From: a virus
Lineage: Duplodnaviria; Caudoviricetes
Direction: 5' to 3' (one strand)
IMG/VR virus record: IMGVR_UViG_3300034149_000113
Coordinates: 1,050-65,049 of that record
Length of the DNA stretch: 64,000 bases
The notes below the pieces were generated by a model that was not told where the DNA came from, did not search any database, and worked only from the letters and a program-made list of their open reading frames with translations. Positions within the stretch are counted from its first letter, which is position 1, and the number at the start of each line of letters is the position of its first letter. Made by a program: the position numbers and the translations under genes. This document shows positions 25,455 through 56,418 of the stretch, piece after piece.

Positions 25455-25491
25455 AGCCCGACGGCCCCCCAGCTGCTCGGGCTTCTTTTTT
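25455..25491 (+). terminator. Rho-independent terminator between the convergent arms
   Basis: AGCCCGA/TCGGGCT stem followed by TCTTTTTT. Confidence 0.7.
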
Positions 25492-28400
25492 ACTGCGGCT
25501 GGTAGGTCCCTGCCACCGCAGCTTCCACGAAGCGCCGGTTGGTCTTGGTGTAGGGCACGCCTTCGAGGGTCATGGCCTCGCGCTTGCGCTGCGCCATCGG
25601 TGCCTTGAGCAATGACGACAGCGGCGTGGCCTTCAGGCCGTTGCGCTTCTTGGCTTCCTGCAGCTGCTTCCACTCTTCGCGCACTTCGGTCAGTGCCGCC
25701 GAGTCGTTGTTGCGGTAGGCCTCGGCGTAGTCGTTGCGCAACCGCTTCTCGCGGTCGTCGTAGAAGGTGTCCATCTCGTACTTCTGGCTCTTGATCATCT
25801 GCGGCCGGGTGATCTCGGTGGTGGGCAGGCCCAGCCCCTGCAGGACAATCGAAGCGAAGGCGAGATCATCCGGCGACATCACCACGTCGCGGTTCTTCGC
25901 CGTGATGCCCTCGGTGGCGAAGCGCATAGCCTTCAGCGCGTTGCCCACCCCGTTCGGCATGAACCCCTCCAGCCCCTTGTAGTAGTCGCCTTCCATCATG
26001 TTCCCCAGGGCCGTGGCGAAGCGTGTCCCCAGCCCGCCCACCGACGGTCCGGCCAGCGCCGTCACCGCCTCGGCGTAGCCGCTGCGCGACGTCGGGTCGA
26101 AATTACCGTAAGGAAGTAAGGAGAACGCAGTACCCATGCCGAGCTTGCCCGACATGTTGAGCCCCGCCGCCGCCGGCCCCCCGTAGAGCAGCAGATCGGC
26201 TATCGAGTCGTTGCCGATGGCTCGACGCAACTTCATGTCGACGTCGTCCGGCTCGTCCGGGTCGCCGAACAGCTTGGTGGCGAGCCAGGCGATGGCCATG
26301 GCCCCCGGCATACCCAGTGCGCCGCCAAGCGCGAACGTGTGCAACAGGATGAAGCCAAGCCCCTTGCGCGCCGCCAGCTTCACCTGGTCGTTCTCGCCCT
26401 TGAGCGCGTTGGTGAGCAGCCGCGAGATCAACGACACCTGGATGATCTGGAAGCGCCGGAACTGCCCGAACACGCTGCGCCATGGGCCGGCGATCAGTCG
26501 TGGCGTGTTGAACCCGTCGTAGCTGCCATGGGTCTGGCTGACGATGCCCTTGGCGTAGCGCGTGGCCTTGTCGTCGGGCATGCCGCGCTCGCGCTGCAGC
26601 CGGTAGGCGGCAACCGCCGTGGCTACCCGGTTGATGGACTCCACCCGCACGTTGATCCCGCGCAGCACCCGGTCGGCACGGTTCCAGTAGGCGCTGAACT
26701 TGCTGCCGTCGCCCGAGGTCGCCCACTTGCCCATGTCGACGTCGATGCCGATGTCGATCTGCCCGCTGTCCACCAGCTTCTGCAGCATCTCCCGCACGTC
26801 CTCCGGTGCCTTGGAGAAGTCCATGCGGTCGGAGACGCCCAGGCCCTTGAGCATGGGCCCCAGCTCCTGGTAGGCCCGCGTCAACGCCCGCGCCGAGCGG
26901 AAGTAGCTGTGGTCTCCGGCCAGCACCGGCAGCGACATGACCGCAGGCTGCAGAATCTGCTGCAGGTAGAACGCCGGGTTGGTGGCCAGCATCCACACCG
27001 AAGTTGCGCGCTTGACGATGTTGGACGCCGTCTGCGGATGACTCTCCATGCTGGCGGCGTGGCGCAGCAGCAGCTCGTTGTAGTAGCGCATGTTCGAGGC
27101 GCGGTCGCCCTTCTTGGCCGCCTCGCGCATGACGTCGATGCTGTCCTGGATGCCTTGGTGGTTCTCCAGCGTGGATAGGAACAGCGAGTCGGCGCGTCCC
27201 TGCGTGGCGAAGGCGCGCATCATGTTGACGTCGGCTCCGGCCACGTACATCCGGCGGCGCTCCGAGTGTCGGGCGCTGGCTTCCTGCTGCGCCGTCAGGT
27301 ACAGGTCGCTCAGCATCGAGTTCATCTGCTTGAGCGGCTTGTTGGCCTTGGGATCGTCGCCGAACTGCTCCTGCAGCAGGTTGCGCATGCGATGGAAGGC
27401 GAGGTAGATGGTGTCGCCACGCAGCAGTGCGTCGCGGGCCGCTTCCTTCTCGTAGGAGTCGACGAGTCCGTCCGGGTACTGCGCCTTGATGTCGTCGCGG
27501 ATGGCCTCGGCCTCGCCCAGCGTCTCGGCAAACTGCACCTGGTAGTGCTCGGCGTTCTTGCGCATCTCCTCCAGCGCCTTGGTGTCCTCCGCTTCCTCGG
27601 CGTCGAGATAGGCCCGCGACTTGGCCACGGTGACGTAGTCGCCGAAGCGCTTGAGCGGCGCGTAGGGTCCGTTGGCCGCAATGGCCATCAGCTCGCTGTA
27701 CTCCTTCAACCGGGCATCGCGCTGCTCAGCCAGCGTGCCAGCTTCCTTCTTCAGGTCCCGGTACTCCTTCTCCAGCTCGATGAATTCCGCCGGGTCGATG
27801 GTGGTCGACGCCATCTTCTGCTTGATGGCCGCGATCTCGGCGTCCACGCCCTTCACCCGCTCAGCGTAGTCGGCGGTGATCGACTCGACCACGGCCTTCT
27901 TCTTGGCCTGCAGCATCTCGTAGCCGTGGGCGAACACGTCGCGCACCAGCTTCTGCCCTTGCGGCGACAGCGCGTTGAAGCGCTGCTCCAGCCCAGGGTC
28001 TAGCTTCACCTGCGAGTCGGGCTTGATCCTGTAGCCCCACTTCTGCGTGTAGGTGGAGTCGTAGATGTAGCGGTTGACGCTACCCATACCGATGCCACGC
28101 TCGCCGATGGGCAGGTGGTCGTACTGCTTGAGCACGTCTTCGATCTGCTGGTTGACGCGCAGCCGGGTTGCTTGCCGGCCGTACTGGATGTCCATGTAGT
28201 CGCGCACGGCCTTGCCGAACTCCTTCGGCGAGTGGCGCTGCGCCATGTCGGAGATGTCCTCGGTGATGGCAGCGAACAGCGCGCTCTTCTTCATCCAGTC
28301 GTTGAAGGTGGTCCAGATCGCCTTGCTGGTGCGGCGCGCCGGCGGCGGCAGCTGAGCAAAGGTGCGCTCGGCCAGCGCAACGCGAGTGGATGCCTGATAG

Positions 28401-31400
28401 TCCGGGCGGATGATCGGCCTGTACGGCAGCGGGTCGCGGGCGGTAAAGAAATTGGGCAGCGGCACACCTGGCGCGTCCGACGAGATCACCGCCGGGTCGC
28501 CGCGCAGGTGCAAAGGCGTAGCTGCTACATCGCCTCGCAGTCCACGCTCGCGCTGCGTCGACACCTCGCGTGCTTCCTGCTCTCCTGCGGCGAGCATGTA
28601 GAAGCCATGCGAAAGCTCGTCGACATAGTAGTCAATGTGCAGGTCGTCGAGCAGTCTCTGGTAAGCGGCACGGTACTCAGCCTTGGCGTCTTCCAAGAGC
28701 TTGCTGTAGTCCAACTTTTGCTGCATGTAATGCTGACGTGTGTCCTTGCTGTGATACCCCCTGTCCCGCGCTTTGACCTGGGCCAGCTCAGTGTCTTCGA
28801 CAATCCGCTGGAAGTGGTACACGTCATTGGCCTTGTCCCGCAGACTTTCTATTGCTGCAGGGTTGGCGTCCAACAAGTTCCTCAATGACTGAATAAGCTG
28901 CTCGGTCTTGAACGCTTCGTAGCCGAGGTCGGTGATGACGTCATGCGGACCACCCTTGGCGATCTTCGCTTCAAGGTCCTTCAGCGCGGACTGCAGGTGG
29001 CTGTGCATGGCCCGCAGCGCCTTGCGGTTGCCGATGTCGAACAGCAGCGCGTTGGACCCGGCATGGAAATCTTCCCGCATCTGTATCCAATGCTGGACTT
29101 CATGCAGCAGCACGCTCAGCTGGTCTTCGCGGGTCGCGTGCCGCCAGGTCTCCTTGGGAACGCGAAGAGTGATCTGGTGAGTGTCCGGGTTGAACCCGCC
29201 GCTGATGCCGTAGCCTTCTTTCTCGTCGCTGTATTTCAACGCCACCAAAACATCGCGCAGCTCGGGGTAGGCAGCGAACAGCTCCGGGTGGTCGAGCACG
29301 TCGCCGAGCTTGTAGACGCGCCCGCGTTCCGGCATGTTGTACTGATCCAGAACGCCAAGCAGCGCCTTGGTGTTCTTGCCGAGCGGCAGCCGCCATTTGG
29401 CGTTGATGTCGCTGATCTCGAAACGCGGCTTGTTGTCCTTCCCCCAGATAATCCCGGTCTTTTTGTACGCCCGCCTGGCATAGGCCAGACGTTGCTTCGC
29501 GTCCATGCCCTGCATCTGCATACGGTCAAAGACCATATGCACTACCTGATCATCGGTCAGCGTTCTGGCAGAAGGCCCGACGAAGCTGGCTTGGTACTTG
29601 CCCTCGTTCCCGTCGCCTACGCCGTAGCTGACTGTCACCAACTCGTCGGGGATACCCTCGGTCACGTTCGGCGCAGCGGCCCTGCGCTGCTCGGCAGTCA
29701 TCGTACGGCGATGGGCCACGTCGCGGGCCTCGCGCTCACCGGCAATGATCTGGTAGGCGATGAAGGCGATGTCGTCCTCCATCAAAGCCTTCATGTCTTT
29801 CTTGACAGCGGTCAGCTGGTCATCTATGGCTGCGACCGCATCTTCTGCCGGCTTGGTAATGGCCTTGCGTTCGGTGTAGGTGAGGAAACCGTACGGCGTA
29901 GAGGATATGTTCGCCAGCAGTTTTTTGTGCACTTCATTGCGTCGTTCACGTGCCTCTTTGTACTCTTTGTCTTCTGTGTCGTAGTTGCGCTCCTTGTAGG
30001 GCTTCGCCCGATTCTTGGCGATAAGGTCGTCTATCTCTTCACTTATTTTTTCATAGTCGAGCTTGAGCTGGTCACGCGCTTCCCTATGCAGTCTCCTTTC
30101 TTCATCCAGCGCTGCTTCCCTGCGCTTTACTTCGGCCTCGGCTTCCTTGACTTTTTCCTGAGCCTTTTTCTTCTCCTCGACAATGGCCTTGCGCTGCACG
30201 TCGAGCGCTTCCAGCTGCGGCAGGTTCTTTACATGCTTGTCGAATGCTTCAAGCCGACGCTCACGAATCCAGTTGTCCTTGTACAGAATCGGTATGGCTT
30301 TGTGGACACGGCTCAACAGGTTCTGGCTGGTCAGGTCCACCGTGTCGGTGTTGCCGCCGTTGGCGAACGTCTCCCTCGACTGAATCCAGTGCTGGACTTC
30401 GTGCAGCAGGGTGCCGATGGGATCGGTAGCGTGCGGGGTGACCACGATGTTGGTGCCGTCGAACCAACCCTGCGTGCTGCCGAAGAAATCGAACAGCATC
30501 TTTTGCTTGCGGAACACGACGTTGTGCAGCTCGGGGTAGGCAGCGAACAGCTCCGGGTGGTCGAGCACGTCGCCGAGTTTGTAGTCAGTGCGCTGTCCAA
30601 GCGCAGCGCTCTCCGTGATCTGGTCGAACGGGACTTTCCACGTGGCGTTTTCGTCGCTGATCTCGAAGCGCCACTTGCCGTCGGGGCCCTTGTGCCAGCC
30701 CGAGGTCTGGCGCAGCCTCTCCATCAGCTCGGCCGTCGGTGCCGGCAACTTGTCTGTAGCAGCCTTGATCAGCTCCAGCGACTGCCATGGCGCAGTGACG
30801 GCTTGCTGCCCGGCGAAGGTGGCCTGATATCCACGCTGGCTAGCGAGCGGCATGCCGCGCATGGCCAAATGCGCTGCGCCGTAAGCCAGGTCGACAACGT
30901 CGCTCGCGCTCAGCTGGTCGAAGTGGATGCCGAACTTGTTGAGTGCTCTCTTGATTGCCGACCACAGCTGACGGAACCAGCGACCAAGTGGCGACCTGAC
31001 GTCGAGCACAGTGGGGTTGACCCCGGCCTTGACCGCCTCTTCGACGAAGTAGGCCAGCAACTCGCGCTCTGCCTGTGCGCCCTTCGCCCCTGACTCTTCC
31101 AGCCGAACCAGCGCAGCCTTGGCGATGCGCTGCTCCAGCTTGCCGCCGCTTTCAGCGAACTTGCGAATCTGGTTGACTAGTGCTGCGTGCGCACCGGGAG
31201 CCAGCATGTTCTCCAGTCCGATGTGCGTGCCGACTTCGTGCATGAACACGGCGGGGCCAGTGCCGGGGAGGATACGGTCGGCAATCAGCCAGACTTGATC
31301 GCCGTAGGTGAACGCCTGATCGCCAGGGTCCATCTGTCGACGCGCATCTTCAGGGATGCTCGGGTCGTCGGCGCTCTGCACGACGTGCAGCAGGTCCTTG

Positions 31401-34400
31401 TTCTCGGCTTTGATATAGGCCGTGACTTCCCGCTGCAGCGTGGCCGCGTCGTAACCGCCGCCAGTACCTTGACGCTGACTGAAACGTGCAAAAGCCCGTG
31501 GCGAGTAGATGCGCTCCGGCAGGCCAGCGGTGACGCTGGTGTCCCGAGAAACCACCAACTGCTTCATGCCTTCCAGCAGACCGGGTGCCTTCTCCTGCAC
31601 TTGCGCACGCAGCGTGCGCAGCGCTTTCCGAATCTCAGCAATGCTGAAGCTGCCCGGCTTGAACTTGTTGTAGAACTTGATCCCGTTGGGCACGACCATC
31701 GACGACCGCACCTTGTCGATGAAGCCCTTGTATTTATCCAGCACAGGAGTTGCATCCGGCGGAACACCGGCAGCGTGCACCTCCACTACCCCTTTCCTTG
31801 GAGAGTGGACAATAAGCGTCTCGACCACGGCGTCGCGGATAGAGTCCGACTGCGCCAGGATGTCTCCGTCGAGAATCTGCAGACCAGATGCCCTGTCGGG
31901 GAACGTGATGTACCGAGCCATCGCATTCTTGATCGGCCCGAACTGCCCGATGGACACGAACCCTTCCGCATCTGCGTCGGCCATCGAGAACGATGGCTTG
32001 CTGCTGGCTTGGTAGTCGACCTCCGGCAACGCGTGGACAGGCACGCCGTGCTTGGCGTACTGCTGCAGCACCTGCGCCTGCGTTACACCGGGACGCTCAC
32101 CCTTAATGAGCATGTCGCCGATAGCATCGTTGTCCTTGTCGATCCGGTTGCTCTCTTGGTACGCTGCCAACGAGCGGTCGAAGTAGTCGCCAAGGTCGTC
32201 CTTCAGCTGCCGCTGCAACTGCGCGCTCTTCTCGGCACTCATGTACCGGCGCATGCCGAAGGCTTCGTAGAAACGCTTGAACAGCGTATCGGCTGCGCTC
32301 TCGTCGCCTTCCGCCTTCTCCAGCCCAGCGCCACGCCACAAGCCGTCGGCCAGTTTCCTGTTGGCCTCGGTTGCAGCTTCCACCTTGTCGTAACGCGCCA
32401 TGATGGCGTCTTCAGTGATAGCGCCCTGCACATCCACCGATGTGTCCTTGATGATGGCCACCGGCTTGGCACCGTGCTTCTGCACAAGACTGTCGTTCTG
32501 ATAGCCCTTGCTGCGCAGGTTCAGGTCGGACTTGCGGAACACCAGGATGGTCCCGCCTTCGTCATCGAACGCCTGCCCATCGCGGGTGGTGCTGACGTTG
32601 GCACCGACGCGCAAGCCGTTCTTCATGATGCTGTCGATGTCAGCGTCGTTGCGCACGGCGTGGAACGCGTACTCGTCGCTGTCGAGGTATTTCTCGGCAC
32701 CAGTCTTTGGCGCAGTGCGGCTGGCCTGGTACTTTTCGTCTTTCCTCACATAGGGTTTGTTGTTGACCCAGAGGATCGGCTTGAAGTGCGGCCCCATCGT
32801 TTCGTGGACACCTGCGCCACGGAAGTCAGCGGGGTTGAACCCGGCGGCGCGGGCCTCAGCAGGCGTGGCGAATCGGCCTATTTCTGCTGGGGCGCGACGG
32901 CTGGCCTGGTACTTCGGCCCAGCAGCTTCTTGCGCCATCCAGTCCCGCGCTTCCTTCTCACTGGCGAAGTGCTCCAGCACGCCCTGCGTGTCGTGATGCA
33001 CCGCGTGCGTCATTCCGGCAGGGAACGGCGTGGGGCTGTCCTCCTGCGTGATGACTTGGTACGGCCCTGTTGCTGTCGCAGCAACTGGTGCGGCTTTCGG
33101 CTTGCTGCGCGTGATCTTGTCATCGAGCAGCTTGACGTCGTTATCCGTCCAGTTGCTCTCGCCGCCGTCGATGAACTCCTGCTTCTGCGCGTGCGTCAGT
33201 TCCGACCACTTGCGGTAGTCGGGATGCAGTGCGACTGCCGCGTTCCACCACCACATCGCCTTTTCGCGGGTGGACATGGCCATGTACTGCTCTTCCAACT
33301 CCTGCCGCTTCTTGGCCTCGGTCGCGGTGACGGGCGTGCCGGGTTTCTTCTCGGCAGCGGCCACCCGTTTCTTCTTTTCCTTCTCGCCCTGCTTGACCAC
33401 CACCTCGGCGGTCTTTGACGGCGCAGCTGCCGTGCCGCCGGGTGCTTCCGTCTTCGTCCGCAGTGGCGTGAGCGTGCCGGCTACTTCAGCCGCTGCCTCG
33501 CCGGTGTGCACGGTGACGCCGCTGGGCGTCTGGGCTGCCTTCAGTACGCGCCCTTTTTTGCCTTTCGGAAGCTGACCTTTTTTGGCACCCTTTCCGGCAG
33601 CTTTTTCATGTCCGGCGTCGCCGCCGCGAACTCCTTCGCCACCTTCGGATTCGTTGCGAACAGTTTCTTCGCCTGCGCTTTCGACTTGAACGGCATCTGC
33701 GTCCTCCTCGGTTTCCCGGTTGAGCGTGGCATCGACTTCTACGACACCTTCCAGTTCGTTCTCGACTTCGCTGACCTTGCGCTTTGACGCCTTGGCGATC
33801 TCGATCTTCACCCGCGACTCGATCTCGGCCGCGAGGGCTTTCAGTGCCTTGAGGTCGGCATCGTCTCCCAGGTCCTTGGACAGCCGCGCCATGTCGGCCC
33901 GCGAAGACAGCGCCTGCCCTGGCTTCAGGCGCGCCTGCAGCAACTCCATCAAGCGCACCGACATGCGCTGCAGCTGCGCGTCCGACCAAACGTATTCGCC
34001 CTTGTCGTTGCGCGCACCGAGCCGCTTCGCCGGGTCCTTGCCATCGACGAGCTTGCGCAGCCGGCCCAGCTCCTGCGCCAGGTCGCCGGGCCTGACGTCG
34101 CCTTCGTCCGACCCCTGGCCCGAGCCAGCGGAGCCAACCTCGTACAGCCCCTCTTCCATCTGCTGGCCGGTGCTGGCGGTCACCATGCCGCTCTTCTTTA
34201 TGCCGACCTCATCGGCGGCCTCGCGCACCGGCGCGGCTTCAGTTACCCGCGTGTCTTCCACACCCTGCGTCGCGGTGCGAATCTCGGCGGCGTTCTCATC
34301 GGTCACTACCTCTTCTTCGGCACGGGTGGGCAGCTCTTCCAGCGGCTCCACCGTGATGCCCATCTTCTCGGCTGTCTCTTCCATCGCCTTGCGATACTCG

Positions 34401-36349
34401 ATGGCGATGGCGCGCACGCGGCTGCCGTCGATGTTGTGCCGCTTGCCGATCTCGGTGGAACTCTCGTCGGTCTGTCCCGCGCCGTACTCGACGGCGATCA
34501 TGTAGTTGCGTGCGCCAAGCCCCTTGAACTTGGCATTGACCGCCGAGAAAAACTGATCGCGCAGCGACGGCTCGACGCCGCTCTTGATCTGGTCGACATC
34601 CTTCGGCTCCAGCCGCATCTCCTCGGCCACTTCCTGCTCGCGCTGGCGGTAGTTGCGGGCGAGCACCTTCAACTGCTTGACCGGGAGCTTGAGGCTGTCG
34701 GCGAGCGCCTGCTGCTTGGCTTCGTCGTCCTTGATGCCGGGCCAGGCTTCGGCGACGGCGCGGGCCTTCTGCGCCTGCTCGGGGGTGGTGTACTTGCTGT
34801 TGAGCTTGGCGTAGAACTCGCCCTTCTGCGGGTGCTCGGTCTTGCCTGCGGGCGGCGGGGGCGCGGCGACCGTAGCAGGCGGCACAGTGGTAGCCACGCC
34901 CTCTGGCGGCGCGCCCGCTGGCGGCGTAGTGGGAACTTCAGCTGCCACCCCCGGCAGTTCCATTTGTCCTGTCGGTGGCGTAACAACTTGACCTTCGACT
35001 GCAGTCTTGACTTCCTTGGTCGCCGCCGCAACAGCTGCAGCGATCATGTCATGCAGCTGGGACAGCTTGCTGATCCTGGCGTTGTCCTTGGCCTTGTCGC
35101 GCAGCTCGGAGATCAGCTGCAGCGCTTCCAGGATGCTGGTCGGCGCAGCGTTCTGGTTCTTCTTCGTGCCGATGTTGAGGAACTGCCGCAGGTTAGCATC
35201 AAGCGCGCCAGAGGTTTTTGTCTTGGCGGCTTCCCCGGCCATCTCGACGTAGAACGGACGCAAGGCTTCCATGGTCGCCCGCACCGGGTCTGGCTGCTCC
35301 GCTGCCGTGCCTGCAGCAGCCCCAGCCGCTCCCGGCGGGGGCTTGGGCGGTGGAGGTACGTACGGACCGCCCTCGACGTTCCACAGGCTCATCTGCCGGG
35401 GATCGGCGGGCGGGGGAAGACTCGGGTCGACGCCGCTGTCCGGCCCCCACAACGGCAGCTGCGTCCCCGGTGGCGGCGCACCGAGCAAGTCACGCGGCTG
35501 ATTCGGGTTGGGTATCCCGGCAACGCCGCCGAGCATGCCGCCGCCGAGCGCGCCCAGCGCCGCCGCGTTGTAGTACTCGGACATGGCCTCGGGGCCACCG
35601 AGTTCCTTGAACGCTCCAAAGCGCTCGATCACGGACTGCGCGACTTCGGTCGGCGCTTCCTTGGCCGCCTGCACCACGGCCCCGGTGCCCACCCGGCGCG
35701 CCAACCCCGGCCCCTCGCCGGCCAGCAGGTTCTTCGGCTTCGTGCCGAGTACCTTCTTGATGATGCCCAGCTCGGGGATCAGGTCCAGCGCAGCGGCAGG
35801 CACGGCGGTCAGCGCAGCGCGCCACGGGTCGTCGTGGCCCTCGGCAGCCTGCTCGGGGTAGATCGACCCGCCTTCCTGGATCAGACCCGCTGCGCCGGAG
35901 CCGACCATCGCGCCACGGATTTTTCGTTTGGCGAGCTGCTCGGCCGTCAGCTGTACACCCTTCTGCACACCCAGCTGCGCCGCCTTGGCTCCAAGGCCAC
36001 CGGTTACGATGGACGGCAGCGCCTGCCCGAAGACGTAGCCTGCGCCGTGCGACAGGAACTGCCCAGGCGACTCAAAGAAGTTCTCGACCTGGTCGCCTTC
36101 CCGCGAATACTCGTCGGCCTTGTCGAAGCTCTCCTGCGCCGACTCTATCCCCCAGTCCCTGATCCCCTCCATGCCGGGGATGCCGATGTCCCTGGCCAGC
36201 CCCGCGCCCAACCCGATGGCACCGGGGATCGTGCCGGCGATCTGATGCCCGCTCTGGTAGAGCCCGCGCATGAAGTTGCCGGGTTCCCTCCCACGCGGCT
36301 CACCGAATGCCTCGGCGTGCTGACGATTGATGTCGTCGATGATGGACAT
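25490..36349 (-). CDS. 3619-aa polyvalent (DarB-like) virion ejection protein
   Basis: Two LPD23-like GW.KG.DGKWRFEISD domains, three zincin motifs (HEVGTH, 2x HEVQH), PLxRFG motif (YAPLKRFGDY), LPD38-like C-terminus, HTH-like N-terminal segments. Confidence 0.85.
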   Translation of the reverse strand: MSIIDDINRQHAEAFGEPRGREPGNFMRGLYQSGHQIAGTIPGAIGLGAGLARDIGIPGMEGIRDWGIESAQESFDKADEYSREGDQVENFFESPGQFLSHGAGYVFGQALPSIVTGGLGAKAAQLGVQKGVQLTAEQLAKRKIRGAMVGSGAAGLIQEGGSIYPEQAAEGHDDPWRAALTAVPAAALDLIPELGIIKKVLGTKPKNLLAGEGPGLARRVGTGAVVQAAKEAPTEVAQSVIERFGAFKELGGPEAMSEYYNAAALGALGGGMLGGVAGIPNPNQPRDLLGAPPPGTQLPLWGPDSGVDPSLPPPADPRQMSLWNVEGGPYVPPPPKPPPGAAGAAAGTAAEQPDPVRATMEALRPFYVEMAGEAAKTKTSGALDANLRQFLNIGTKKNQNAAPTSILEALQLISELRDKAKDNARISKLSQLHDMIAAAVAAATKEVKTAVEGQVVTPPTGQMELPGVAAEVPTTPPAGAPPEGVATTVPPATVAAPPPPAGKTEHPQKGEFYAKLNSKYTTPEQAQKARAVAEAWPGIKDDEAKQQALADSLKLPVKQLKVLARNYRQREQEVAEEMRLEPKDVDQIKSGVEPSLRDQFFSAVNAKFKGLGARNYMIAVEYGAGQTDESSTEIGKRHNIDGSRVRAIAIEYRKAMEETAEKMGITVEPLEELPTRAEEEVVTDENAAEIRTATQGVEDTRVTEAAPVREAADEVGIKKSGMVTASTGQQMEEGLYEVGSAGSGQGSDEGDVRPGDLAQELGRLRKLVDGKDPAKRLGARNDKGEYVWSDAQLQRMSVRLMELLQARLKPGQALSSRADMARLSKDLGDDADLKALKALAAEIESRVKIEIAKASKRKVSEVENELEGVVEVDATLNRETEEDADAVQVESAGEETVRNESEGGEGVRGGDAGHEKAAGKGAKKGQLPKGKKGRVLKAAQTPSGVTVHTGEAAAEVAGTLTPLRTKTEAPGGTAAAPSKTAEVVVKQGEKEKKKRVAAAEKKPGTPVTATEAKKRQELEEQYMAMSTREKAMWWWNAAVALHPDYRKWSELTHAQKQEFIDGGESNWTDNDVKLLDDKITRSKPKAAPVAATATGPYQVITQEDSPTPFPAGMTHAVHHDTQGVLEHFASEKEARDWMAQEAAGPKYQASRRAPAEIGRFATPAEARAAGFNPADFRGAGVHETMGPHFKPILWVNNKPYVRKDEKYQASRTAPKTGAEKYLDSDEYAFHAVRNDADIDSIMKNGLRVGANVSTTRDGQAFDDEGGTILVFRKSDLNLRSKGYQNDSLVQKHGAKPVAIIKDTSVDVQGAITEDAIMARYDKVEAATEANRKLADGLWRGAGLEKAEGDESAADTLFKRFYEAFGMRRYMSAEKSAQLQRQLKDDLGDYFDRSLAAYQESNRIDKDNDAIGDMLIKGERPGVTQAQVLQQYAKHGVPVHALPEVDYQASSKPSFSMADADAEGFVSIGQFGPIKNAMARYITFPDRASGLQILDGDILAQSDSIRDAVVETLIVHSPRKGVVEVHAAGVPPDATPVLDKYKGFIDKVRSSMVVPNGIKFYNKFKPGSFSIAEIRKALRTLRAQVQEKAPGLLEGMKQLVVSRDTSVTAGLPERIYSPRAFARFSQRQGTGGGYDAATLQREVTAYIKAENKDLLHVVQSADDPSIPEDARRQMDPGDQAFTYGDQVWLIADRILPGTGPAVFMHEVGTHIGLENMLAPGAHAALVNQIRKFAESGGKLEQRIAKAALVRLEESGAKGAQAERELLAYFVEEAVKAGVNPTVLDVRSPLGRWFRQLWSAIKRALNKFGIHFDQLSASDVVDLAYGAAHLAMRGMPLASQRGYQATFAGQQAVTAPWQSLELIKAATDKLPAPTAELMERLRQTSGWHKGPDGKWRFEISDENATWKVPFDQITESAALGQRTDYKLGDVLDHPELFAAYPELHNVVFRKQKMLFDFFGSTQGWFDGTNIVVTPHATDPIGTLLHEVQHWIQSRETFANGGNTDTVDLTSQNLLSRVHKAIPILYKDNWIRERRLEAFDKHVKNLPQLEALDVQRKAIVEEKKKAQEKVKEAEAEVKRREAALDEERRLHREARDQLKLDYEKISEEIDDLIAKNRAKPYKERNYDTEDKEYKEARERRNEVHKKLLANISSTPYGFLTYTERKAITKPAEDAVAAIDDQLTAVKKDMKALMEDDIAFIAYQIIAGEREARDVAHRRTMTAEQRRAAAPNVTEGIPDELVTVSYGVGDGNEGKYQASFVGPSARTLTDDQVVHMVFDRMQMQGMDAKQRLAYARRAYKKTGIIWGKDNKPRFEISDINAKWRLPLGKNTKALLGVLDQYNMPERGRVYKLGDVLDHPELFAAYPELRDVLVALKYSDEKEGYGISGGFNPDTHQITLRVPKETWRHATREDQLSVLLHEVQHWIQMREDFHAGSNALLFDIGNRKALRAMHSHLQSALKDLEAKIAKGGPHDVITDLGYEAFKTEQLIQSLRNLLDANPAAIESLRDKANDVYHFQRIVEDTELAQVKARDRGYHSKDTRQHYMQQKLDYSKLLEDAKAEYRAAYQRLLDDLHIDYYVDELSHGFYMLAAGEQEAREVSTQRERGLRGDVAATPLHLRGDPAVISSDAPGVPLPNFFTARDPLPYRPIIRPDYQASTRVALAERTFAQLPPPARRTSKAIWTTFNDWMKKSALFAAITEDISDMAQRHSPKEFGKAVRDYMDIQYGRQATRLRVNQQIEDVLKQYDHLPIGERGIGMGSVNRYIYDSTYTQKWGYRIKPDSQVKLDPGLEQRFNALSPQGQKLVRDVFAHGYEMLQAKKKAVVESITADYAERVKGVDAEIAAIKQKMASTTIDPAEFIELEKEYRDLKKEAGTLAEQRDARLKEYSELMAIAANGPYAPLKRFGDYVTVAKSRAYLDAEEAEDTKALEEMRKNAEHYQVQFAETLGEAEAIRDDIKAQYPDGLVDSYEKEAARDALLRGDTIYLAFHRMRNLLQEQFGDDPKANKPLKQMNSMLSDLYLTAQQEASARHSERRRMYVAGADVNMMRAFATQGRADSLFLSTLENHQGIQDSIDVMREAAKKGDRASNMRYYNELLLRHAASMESHPQTASNIVKRATSVWMLATNPAFYLQQILQPAVMSLPVLAGDHSYFRSARALTRAYQELGPMLKGLGVSDRMDFSKAPEDVREMLQKLVDSGQIDIGIDVDMGKWATSGDGSKFSAYWNRADRVLRGINVRVESINRVATAVAAYRLQRERGMPDDKATRYAKGIVSQTHGSYDGFNTPRLIAGPWRSVFGQFRRFQIIQVSLISRLLTNALKGENDQVKLAARKGLGFILLHTFALGGALGMPGAMAIAWLATKLFGDPDEPDDVDMKLRRAIGNDSIADLLLYGGPAAAGLNMSGKLGMGTAFSLLPYGNFDPTSRSGYAEAVTALAGPSVGGLGTRFATALGNMMEGDYYKGLEGFMPNGVGNALKAMRFATEGITAKNRDVVMSPDDLAFASIVLQGLGLPTTEITRPQMIKSQKYEMDTFYDDREKRLRNDYAEAYRNNDSAALTEVREEWKQLQEAKKRNGLKATPLSSLLKAPMAQRKREAMTLEGVPYTKTNRRFVEAAVAGTYQPQ
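29257..29308. repeat. 52-bp exact repeat, copy A (LGDVLDHPELFAAYPEL)
   Basis: Identical to 30526-30577. Confidence 0.9.
30526..30577. repeat. 52-bp exact repeat, copy B
   Basis: Identical to 29257-29308. Confidence 0.9.
33541..33696 (-). CDS. Nested out-of-frame 51-aa basic protein inside the giant gene
   Basis: GAGGAGG SD 6 nt before ATG; MPFKSKAQAKKLFATNPKVAKEFAAATPDMKKLPERV...; +1 frame relative to the host ORF. Confidence 0.65.
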   Translation of the reverse strand: MPFKSKAQAKKLFATNPKVAKEFAAATPDMKKLPERVPKKVSFRKAKKGAY

Positions 36350-55917: not shown

Positions 55918-55961
55918 GTGTCCTTCTCGCCTTTCCCCGTTGCGGGGTTTGGGCCGTTCGT

Positions 55962-56159
55962 TTACGAGCGAAACGCTTCCAACAACTCTGCCAGCAGTGC
56001 CGCCTTGCCTTGCAGGCGTGGCAGCTGCTCTACCGGCGCGGTCATCAGCAGGGCCGTCGTTGCGTTCAGCTCTGCGCCCCAGTGCTGGAGCAGCTGCTGA
56101 CCGTCAGCGGTCTTCCCTACGCGCTTGTACGTTTCCAGTGTAGTGCTGTCGATCCGCAC
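55962..56159 (-). CDS. Small conserved head-module protein
   Basis: RLQGKA..L.ELL pattern; follows the portal. Confidence 0.6.
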   Translation of the reverse strand: MRIDSTTLETYKRVGKTADGQQLLQHWGAELNATTALLMTAPVEQLPRLQGKAALLAELLEAFRS

Positions 56160-56162
56160 AAG

Positions 56163-56408
56163 TCAACTTCCTTTCTCGACCCCCTTGCAGGTCTTGTACT
56201 CGGGGCCGTAGTGCTCGGCGTTCCAGAACTTGCCCTTCTGGTCCGCTGACGCCCCGGCCTTGGCCATGGTCGTCGTCGGCGCGCTGACCTGGCCGTACTC
56301 GGTGCCGTGGCCGTTGCGCACCGACAGCGAGCCCATCGCCTTCAGCTGGCCGATGTTCTTCACGGCGGGCTTGCCGACCGGTGTCGTTTCCATTGGCATC
56401 TTGTCCAT
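56163..56408 (-). CDS. Hypothetical protein
   Basis: AAGGAG SD; start reassigned to MDKMPME. Confidence 0.65.
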   Translation of the reverse strand: MDKMPMETTPVGKPAVKNIGQLKAMGSLSVRNGHGTEYGQVSAPTTTMAKAGASADQKGKFWNAEHYGPEYKTCKGVEKGS

Positions 56409-56418
56409 GTGCTGCTCC

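Follow-up and report, generated by a model that had tools for sequence, protein, structure and literature searches.

A small basic protein gene very likely embedded in the +1 frame of a giant polyvalent virion protein gene of a tailed phage

We report a 51-codon open reading frame (ORF), P0003, that lies inside the gene for a 3619-aa giant polyvalent virion protein (P0002) of a tailed phage and, on the evidence of comparative sequence data, very likely encodes a protein of its own from the +1 frame of its host (Table 1). The window analyzed is a 64-kb stretch of DNA (64,000 nucleotides, positions 1,050 to 65,049 of the IMG/VR record IMGVR_UViG_3300034149_000113). A sequence-only reading of this DNA had pointed to a 51-aa ORF fully within the giant gene and out of frame with it, a GAGGAGG Shine-Dalgarno (SD) motif 6 nt before an ATG in the +1 frame, and a low-complexity host linker whose D-A-V-Q codons supply the nested ATG CCG TTC AAG; coordinates, translation and codons bear out each of these features, with the motif at 33709-33703. 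On the minus strand the ATG occupies 33696-33694 and the stop codon TGA 33543-33541, and the ORF begins at host codon 885. The host frame reads the overlap bases one position earlier than the nested ORF, so that host GAT GCC GTT CAA yields the nested start, and in the host frame the GAGGAGG bases form part of T-E-E-D. The arrangement GAGGAGG-N6-ATG occurs once in the window, compared with 0.07 occurrences expected, and this unique start together with the many homologs of the product argues for a real nested ORF rather than a chance one. Across 33584-33839 the sequence recurs unchanged in contigs from three further sediment metagenome runs, which rules out an assembly artefact at the start region; these matching contigs were identical fragments and offered no usable polymorphism. 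A search of sequencing runs for this sequence gave no RNA dataset. One low-depth contig carried a 1-nt deletion at 33632, probably an error. A promoter scan around the nested site found none. The nested ORF is the sole copy of its family in the 65-kb phage genome, the record of which is rated 100% complete.

Table 1. Coordinates, in the window, of the nested ORF, its start signal and its host gene
Feature	Position	Strand	Basis or remark
Nested small ORF (P0003), MPFKS family	33541..33696	minus	sequence and translation; 51 codons plus stop
Shine-Dalgarno motif GAGGAGG	33703..33709	minus	6-nt spacer, then nested ATG
Conserved core, codons 1-37: MPFKS.AQ start, two short helices, T-P...L-P-E	33586..33696	minus	alignment A1, AlphaFold
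Lys/Arg-rich C-terminal tail, predicted disordered	33544..33585	minus	length differs between homologs
Overlap as read by host frame, host codons 885-936	33541..33697	minus	acidic, Gly-rich linker from D-A-V-Q-V-E-S-A
Host gene, 3619-aa giant polyvalent virion protein (P0002)	25490..36349	minus	domain matches; last gene of late operon

We propose that the internal GAGGAGG-N6-ATG serves as a separate initiation site on the late mRNA. The predicted product is small and basic, opening with a two-helix hairpin and continuing through the T-P...L-P-E motif to a Lys-rich, disordered tail. In the frame of the giant gene the same stretch would be read as a disordered acidic linker joining the conserved N-terminal region to the effector cassettes.

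Homologs of P0003 are numerous. A search of a 5.8-billion-sequence database returned 127 proteins at E<=0.01, the best at 9e-13, and P0003 matched 268 cluster representatives at E<=1e-3, the match running from residue 1 in all but a few of the 150 representatives listed. More than 120 of the homologs are small proteins of 40-80 aa. The sequence-only reading had described, subject to confirmation, stand-alone proteins of the form MPFKS(K/E)AQ...TP...LPE.V as widespread and uncharacterised, and had called for a BLASTp or HMM search with the 51-aa peptide; the number of homologs, their E-values and the lack of a Pfam family model for P0003 or its relatives agree with that description. The family, here termed MPFKS, was defined by an alignment (A1) of 33 sequences including that of the window, in which ten columns are invariant (M1, P2, F3, S5, Q8, A20, F23, T27, L33, and P34). 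P0003 also has the second-helix motif A-x-E-F/W-A, followed by T-P, L-P-E and the basic tail, and is 73-88% identical to its closest members (P0004-P0007); a scan of genome contigs for a close relative found none. An AlphaFold model of P0003 is a helical hairpin with short helices at residues 6-15 and 17-26 and pLDDT values of 87-91 for residues 1-20.

Among ESM Atlas clusters, the closest one to bear a Pfam label was DUF3008 (PF11450; score 0.84), the others being only unnamed viral clusters. DUF3008 was rejected as the identity of the family, as its HMM matched neither P0003 nor any of the 33 A1 members at E<=1 and none of five variants at E<=10, and 0 of 25 family-bearing phage records rose above its cut-off. 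The profile phrog_1375 matched P0003 weakly (E 0.01, 17 bits, profile positions 17-55 of 70), and matched the N-terminal module of longer fused forms weakly and over part of the profile (E 7e-5 to 1e-3); phrog_1375, of unknown function, and DUF3008 resemble P0003 in comprising short basic phage proteins. A PDB profile search with the family found nothing, and a PDB search with three fused forms gave no match. A tblastn search of cultured phages with P0003 found nothing at E<=1e-3, and one with a consensus-like member gave weak hits only, which led to MW202828.1, S-CBS2, and P-RSP2. Literature searches found no description of the MPFKS family or of its nesting.

The host has the characteristics of a large polyvalent protein, with several LPD/effector domains in one giant polypeptide. 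LPD23 matches it twice (Pfam, E 3e-13), and its C-terminal module of ~950 aa, for which cultured phages carry the labels DarB-like or PLxRFG, matches phrog_10089, itself DarB-like (E 4e-53). The host shares conserved N- and C-terminal modules with many phage proteins of ~2000-3900 aa, and its mosaic middle differs between relatives, consistent with a modular cassette build. Cultured carriers of the C-terminal module (including Erwinia PEp14, Pavtok, Atu_ph08, PBC5, and Klebsiella SopranoGao) are only 21-26% identical. More than ten long alternative ORFs overlap the giant gene.

To examine the recurrence of nesting, we used a set of 77 giants retrieved by the C-terminal module alone, independently of the nested ORF. 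The proposal that DAVQ/NAVQ/NAIQ-type linkers of other giant proteins hide the same peptide was borne out: the ORF is present in 53 of the 77 giants (77% of those with a complete 5' end), in every case inside the gene and in the +1 frame (53/53 each), and at host codons ~730-1120 where the 5' end was complete. The nested start is ATG in every copy except for GTG in four loci. In a tree of the giant C-termini, the window falls in a clade of 24 rows comprising 23 nested copies and one 5'-truncated, unscored sequence. The ORF is also present in giants with no BLASTP similarity to that of the window (L156, L243, L267, and L239). Two observations go beyond the earlier proposal: nesting also occurs in genes of ~390-440 aa, and about a quarter of the related giants and their genomes lack the small gene. 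In the ~390-440-aa hosts the ORF starts at about codon 26 (26-74 in outliers), and in both of the loci that were annotated the neighbors of this host are the portal gene and a capsid-like gene, which is the scaffold position. The nested ORF is missing from 16 full-length related giants; no remnant of it was found in the 15 ORF-less giants checked, and no free copy elsewhere in their 15 records, five of which are >=90% complete. A complementary distribution, in which a genome with an ORF-less giant carries a free copy, was not borne out in these records, and the absence from some giants and their genomes indicates that the gene is dispensable in some lineages.

The sequence-only reading had regarded the overlap as a real dual-coding region, and the pattern of variation agrees with this. 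The small frame has pN/pS of 0.15-0.40, with variation concentrated at third positions, compared with 0.99-1.54 in the host frame, and the choice of codons leaves the host reading free of stops. The proposed synonymous-site analysis gave a dip over the nested ORF in three clades, where host synonymous divergence falls from about 0.6-0.8 in the flanks to 0.035-0.06 over host codons 0-24, the flank values being possibly inflated by the poor alignment of the linkers on either side. The host-frame reading of the overlap is stop-free and shows no amino-acid constraint. By these measures, what selection preserves is the small protein's amino-acid sequence, whereas the host frame need only remain stop-free. 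The latter requirement explains fixed codon choices, for example TTC for Phe3 and no T-ending codon before AAR/GAR. Phe3 is TTC in 22/22 nested copies, compared with 62/100 stand-alone ones, and synonymous reshuffling indicated that the host frame is left open with p<=0.002 in 19 of the 22 nested loci. For the window alone (63% GC) the open host frame is not significant (reshuffle p=0.14), and the dual-coding case therefore rests on the comparative data. Start signals follow the same pattern: of 50 nested starts, 96% have an SD-like motif of >=4 nt upstream, compared with 14% of 6560 control ATGs, and 62% have one of >=5 nt, compared with 2.3%.

Several other explanations were weighed. The copy might be a relic, a free-standing small gene swallowed when flanking ORFs fused or extended, and still recognisable without being translated or useful. 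The family is mostly stand-alone (only 17% of family-scan loci are nested), some related giants and their genomes do without the gene, and one nested copy (L262) ends prematurely at its 23rd codon, a stop, all of which fit this explanation; decay would be expected, however, and yet the start and open frame are kept in all 53 nested giants, at about 35-45% C-terminal identity. The retained SD-like motif, the low small-frame pN/pS, a dip in host synonymous divergence that is sharp and coincides with the ORF footprint, and the position of the nested ORF as the sole copy in complete genomes likewise speak against a relic, which we consider improbable. Programmed frameshifts that give two products are common in phage structural genes, as in lambda G/GT, and the nested site lies at a boundary between domains of the giant; slippage of ribosomes to +1 on the giant mRNA might yield a shortened N-terminal product that terminates with the MPFKS peptide. 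Such a device would have no need of a conserved ATG/GTG with an SD at 5-9 nt, as is seen in the nested loci; in homologs the motif begins at residue 1 and not internally, and in the window the +1 frame stays open for only 12 codons ahead of the nested ATG. We regard frameshifting as very improbable.

Lowered host synonymous divergence by itself would fit an overlapping gene or a nucleic-acid element (an RNA structure or a protein-binding DNA site) equally, in which case the ORF would be incidental. The chances of such an element are slight, given that variation falls at third positions of the small frame with pN/pS well below 1, that the peptide is kept across 32-67% GC with very different nucleotides and in stand-alone genes as well, and that the RNA around the nested start of the window is not strongly folded, nor more structured than shuffled sequences (z +1.36). 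Long alternative ORFs are frequent in GC-rich genes, as those overlapping this giant illustrate, and a chance open frame might be suspected; the match to a defined family at E 9e-13, the perfect SD, and the presence of this ORF in one and the same frame at more than 70 loci reduce its probability to almost nothing, and the homology results refute it.

On sequence comparison, the family appears in four states: stand-alone, as an N-terminal module of longer proteins, nested in giants, and nested in ~390-440-aa genes. Because the family consists mostly of free genes, the embedded copy was probably absorbed rather than born de novo in its host. Three genomes rated 99-100% complete have the nested ORF as their sole family copy. 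Stand-alone copies lie within late or structural clusters, in settings that vary (the portal/capsid interval, the tail fiber/sheath interval, or just before the large terminase), and this variety counts against assigning any particular function. In one fused form the C-terminal end is a minor head protein/DNA pilot domain. The C-termini of the fused forms showed no homology to the host proteins, and a link by frameshift fusion between the nested ORF and downstream host sequence finds no support. Our working guess is that the small protein is expressed late and docks through its hairpin, the tail being polybasic. More specifically, and with considerable doubt, the modelled hairpin might dock onto a conserved component of the late phase or of the virion, with the polybasic tail of the stand-alone and nested forms possibly serving in nucleic-acid binding or virion packaging. 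A bolder and rather unlikely proposal is that the MPFKS unit is a dual-coding cassette carried, or moved by recombination, within the linkers of unrelated large virion-protein genes, its product being made alongside the host protein and docking onto it or onto a shared virion partner. Read one base earlier, MPFKS sequence gives a stop-free acidic disordered linker, so that carriage would leave host genes unbroken; the hosts would be several BLAST-unrelated giants and the mid-sized genes at the scaffold position. If this were true, few genes embedded within others in tailed phages would be as widespread as this unit, which standard gene callers cannot see.

Embedded genes of this kind have well-known counterparts. 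In the spanins of lambda (Rz/Rz1) and T7 (18.5/18.7), a small gene also lies wholly within a larger late gene, in the +1 frame and with its own ribosome-binding site; spanin pairs exist in embedded, overlapped, and separated layouts, which parallel the nested and stand-alone states of the MPFKS family. P0003 has the Rz1-type layout (inside a same-strand gene, +1, with its own start and ribosome-binding site), and the comparative data indicate selection on the embedded frame and a host frame kept open. It was rejected as an o-spanin (Rz1), a family marked by a signal peptide with a lipobox Cys and a Pro-rich mature part, as it has no Cys, signal peptide, lipobox, or hydrophobic leader and is therefore no outer-membrane lipoprotein. 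The hosts also differ, being inner-membrane spanins for Rz/Rz1 and giant polyvalent or mid-sized genes (at the scaffold position where annotated) for MPFKS, and in MPFKS hosts, unlike Rz/Rz1, the overlap is an unconstrained linker in the host frame. In phiX174, gene E inside the scaffold gene D and gene B inside gene A are classic cases of overprinting with both frames used. As in these cases, the MPFKS gene is out of frame and fully embedded in a morphogenesis gene; unlike phiX174, its carriers are tailed dsDNA phages of 32-67% GC, the embedded gene belongs to a family of mostly free genes, and the product is basic and soluble-looking rather than a membrane lysis protein. Iyer et al. reportedly described, in 2017, large polyvalent proteins in phages and conjugative elements, and the MPFKS host gene is like them in its LPD23 domains and modular cassettes. 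T4 capsid-targeting sequences are N-terminal peptides of internal proteins that the prohead protease removes after L/I-x-E, their cargo being found in the head. By analogy, the MPFKS module may be comparable, being N-terminal in otherwise unrelated late proteins and followed by L-P-E, and some MPFKS forms are small and basic; the two show no sequence similarity.

Gene callers forbid fully nested genes on the same strand, which accounts for the absence of the MPFKS family from the annotations of dozens of phage genomes. In line with the suspicion that the gene goes systematically unannotated, the nested copy has no annotation in the deposited complete genome MW202828.1 (GenBank); in Synechococcus phage S-CBS2 even a stand-alone copy is unannotated. 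A small gene that is free, fused, and embedded in at least two unrelated hosts provides a test case for overlapping genes, in which deep comparative data let the sharing of one sequence by two frames be measured. As judged from the sequence, the mRNA of a giant polyvalent protein would also deliver a second, small basic protein, and knock-outs, truncations, and expression constructs of the giants would unknowingly disrupt or co-express the small gene. Mutations silent in the host frame exist that destroy the nested start, the SD motif, or the fifth codon.

The small open reading frame (ORF; P0003), which the sequence-only reading had proposed as a second coding frame, lies inside the gene for the giant polyvalent virion protein. 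It is one base out of register with that gene (+1), its start falling at host codon 885, and the host-frame reading of the overlap, beginning D-A-V-Q-V-E-S-A, is acidic, Gly-rich and of low complexity. The combination GAGGAGG-N6-ATG occurred once in the whole window, compared with 0.07 occurrences expected. Three further sediment metagenome runs yielded contigs identical to the window over 33584-33839. A 1-nt deletion at 33632, inside both frames, in one low-depth contig (run X2) is probably an assembly error, since the base is present in three other contigs, in agreement with the window.

Features of the nested ORF and its surroundings in the window
Feature	Position	Strand	Remark
Shine-Dalgarno (SD) GAGGAGG	33709-33703	minus	6-nt spacer to ATG 33696
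Nested 51-codon ORF	ATG 33696 to TGA 33543-33541	minus	+1 frame of the giant
Host giant ORF, 3619 codons	36349..25490	minus	ORF calling
Late operon		minus	large terminase; portal; 324-aa gene; major head protein; structural, tail-fibre and internal-virion proteins; giant
Interval between portal and 324-aa scaffold-position gene, 500 nt	55918-56418	minus	only 65-aa and 124-aa ORFs, no known family

Selection acted differently on the two frames. Over codons 1-27 of the nested ORFs, pN/pS was 0.15-0.40 in the small frame compared with 0.99-1.54 in the host frame, and stand-alone family genes gave 0.29 over codons 1-27. Host-frame synonymous divergence was about 0.6-0.8 in flanking windows of 25 codons but 0.035-0.06 across host codons 0-24 and 0.09-0.25 across host codons 25-49, a drop seen in three separate clades; the flanks align with difficulty and their values may be too high, yet the contrast is still large and coincides with the ORF footprint. 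The small ORF favors codons that leave the host frame open. The Phe3 codon was TTC in 22/22 nested copies, because TTT would create a host-frame TAA, compared with 62/100 stand-alone copies, and of the 22 nested loci, 19 reached p ≤ 0.002 for an open host frame under random synonymous recoding. The GC-rich window itself gave p = 0.14 and alone would therefore not prove this codon preference. The +1 relation may itself be favored, since it reads the host as a harmless acidic linker, whereas in the other reading the family codons would encode a basic stretch rich in Cys, Arg and Ser.

Nesting recurred widely. Family-based scans found nested copies in 10/80 loci from IMG/VR, 13/80 from metagenomes and 8/27 from genome contigs, all within an ORF of 300 codons or more on the same strand and +1 in every case. 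The hosts were of two kinds, namely giants of about 1660-3860 aa, with the nested ORF 520-1120 codons from the start, and acidic genes of ~390-440 aa in phages of 32-42% GC, with the nested start usually at host codon 26 (52-74 in a few). At the five inspected loci of the second kind without another early start codon, the sole host start within the initial ~75-120 codons was upstream of the nested ORF. In both annotated loci of the second kind, the host gene has the portal on one side and a capsid-like structural gene on the other, which is the usual scaffold position. The sole decayed nested copy seen, in a 400-aa host on a Crocinitomicaceae MAG contig (L262 5808-5876), is ended by a stop after 22 codons.

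In an ORF-independent test, IMG/VR was searched with the giant C-terminal module only (alignment A2), and the small ORF was then sought by HMM. It was present in 53/77 giant loci, inside the giant and +1 in 53/53; eight of the 24 ORF-less loci were truncated at the 5' end, and excluding these, 53/69 (77%) carried it. Among 15 checked of the 16 full giants without the ORF, no remnant was found, and the 15 records searched held no free family copy. On the C-terminal-module tree the nested state requires a minimum of five changes, compared with a mean of 13.6 after shuffling; it occupies entire deep clades, that of the window among them, and is missing from basal clades, a pattern consistent with ancient inheritance and some loss, although the giants have a mosaic build. 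A nested ORF was also present in four further giants without BLASTP similarity to the window-type giant. In total, more than 80 nested loci were found, spanning 32-63% GC.

In giants, 96% of 50 non-redundant nested starts had an SD-like motif (4 nt or longer) 4-17 nt upstream, compared with 14% of 6560 control ATGs from inside the same genes; for motifs of at least 5 nt the values were 62% and 2.3%. The nested start among the 53 giants was ATG, except in four loci (L168, L178, L182 and L192) that read V-P-F-K-S from GTG after an AAGGAG motif; a change of start codon can thus leave the SD in place. Low-GC nested loci, including L239, were without SD motifs; MAG labels suggest Bacteroidota, known for weak SD use, as their bacterial hosts. 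RNA around the window's nested start was, if anything, less folded than shuffled controls. The nested ORF would be expressed from late mRNA, because a promoter scan around the site found no promoter-like site near its start.

The nested peptide gave 127 matches of 28-90 aa (best E 9e-13) among 5.8 billion proteins, and 268 cluster representatives in an exhaustive profile-free search. The 33-sequence alignment has ten invariant columns and the consensus MPFKSKAQARYLFAxNPKVAKEFAAxTPxxKKLPExVKxKK. The AlphaFold model is a two-helix hairpin (residues 6-15 and 17-26, pLDDT about 90) with a tail predicted to be disordered. A sub-group (L037, L063, L136, L245, L248, L251, L254, L258, L265 and L267) carries an 8-12-residue insert between the helices, e.g. 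A-M-x-S-R-G-E-I-S. A Pfam HMM search with the nested peptide, alignment members and variants found no family, and phrog_1375 matched the module weakly. DUF3008, the identity pointed to by ESM Atlas, was tested and rejected; the insert-bearing variants also had no match to it.

Among the 150 representatives listed, 40 to 530 aa long, the match started at residue 1 in nearly all, short or long, and the MPFKS unit is therefore an obligate N-terminal module. C-termini of the fused forms are mutually unrelated; acidic repeats and Gly-zipper-like hydrophobic stretches are among them, as is one minor head protein/DNA pilot domain. Repeated aromatic-A-x-G-G-x-V motifs mark the acidic regions of P0137, P0235, P0238, P0240, P0268 and L103 10001-11671, and the hydrophobic stretches occur in L092, P0203, P0211 and P0260, both without family assignment.

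Stand-alone copies lie at varied positions within late or structural clusters (between portal and head genes, in myoviruses between the genes for tail fibre and sheath, or directly before the large terminase) and often abut or overlap the stop of the upstream gene. Because the module is always N-terminal and followed by L-P-E and then a Lys-rich tail or diverse cargo, we tentatively consider it a hairpin that docks onto a conserved component of the late phase or the virion, with a polybasic tail in small forms, a role that is possible rather than probable; the role may instead be accessory (moron-like) or regulatory. A spanin was ruled out, the nested protein having no lipobox or Cys. The layout, a small gene embedded in a larger one, is that of Rz1 in Rz and likewise of phiX174 gene E in gene D. 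A literature search found no description of the MPFKS family or its nesting, and what is new is the family itself, its range and its hosts, giant polyvalent proteins and mid-sized genes at the scaffold position.

The window's genome, like two other genomes that are 99-100% complete, has no family member besides the nested copy. In the complete 60.9-kb (60,850-bp) podovirus genome MW202828.1, a 43-codon member (L239 9001-9132) lies without an annotated CDS at codon 865, +1, of a 3859-aa CDS annotated 'reticulocyte binding/rhoptry protein', which has no BLASTP similarity to the window giant. Synechococcus phage S-CBS2 carries a stand-alone 36-codon member (GU936714.1, about 34225-34335; L240 5001-5111) where nothing is annotated between gp045 and gp046; the ATG of this member overlaps the gp045 stop.

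The virus record (65 kb, rated 100% complete) is nearly all covered by the window, and the giant is the last gene of the late operon. The portal/324-aa-gene interval, where other phages have a free MPFKS gene, holds no copy here. The giant contains LPD23 domains, and in cultured podoviruses, distant relatives at 21-26% identity, its C-terminal module of ~950 aa goes by the name DarB-like or PLxRFG. With the giants of L093, L108, L109 and L255 it has in common an N-terminal stretch of ~100-200 aa and the C-terminal module, at ~40% identity, and middle cassettes are exchanged between these relatives. L138 and L226 likewise share a short domain (host aa ~984-1073) that directly follows the nested ORF.
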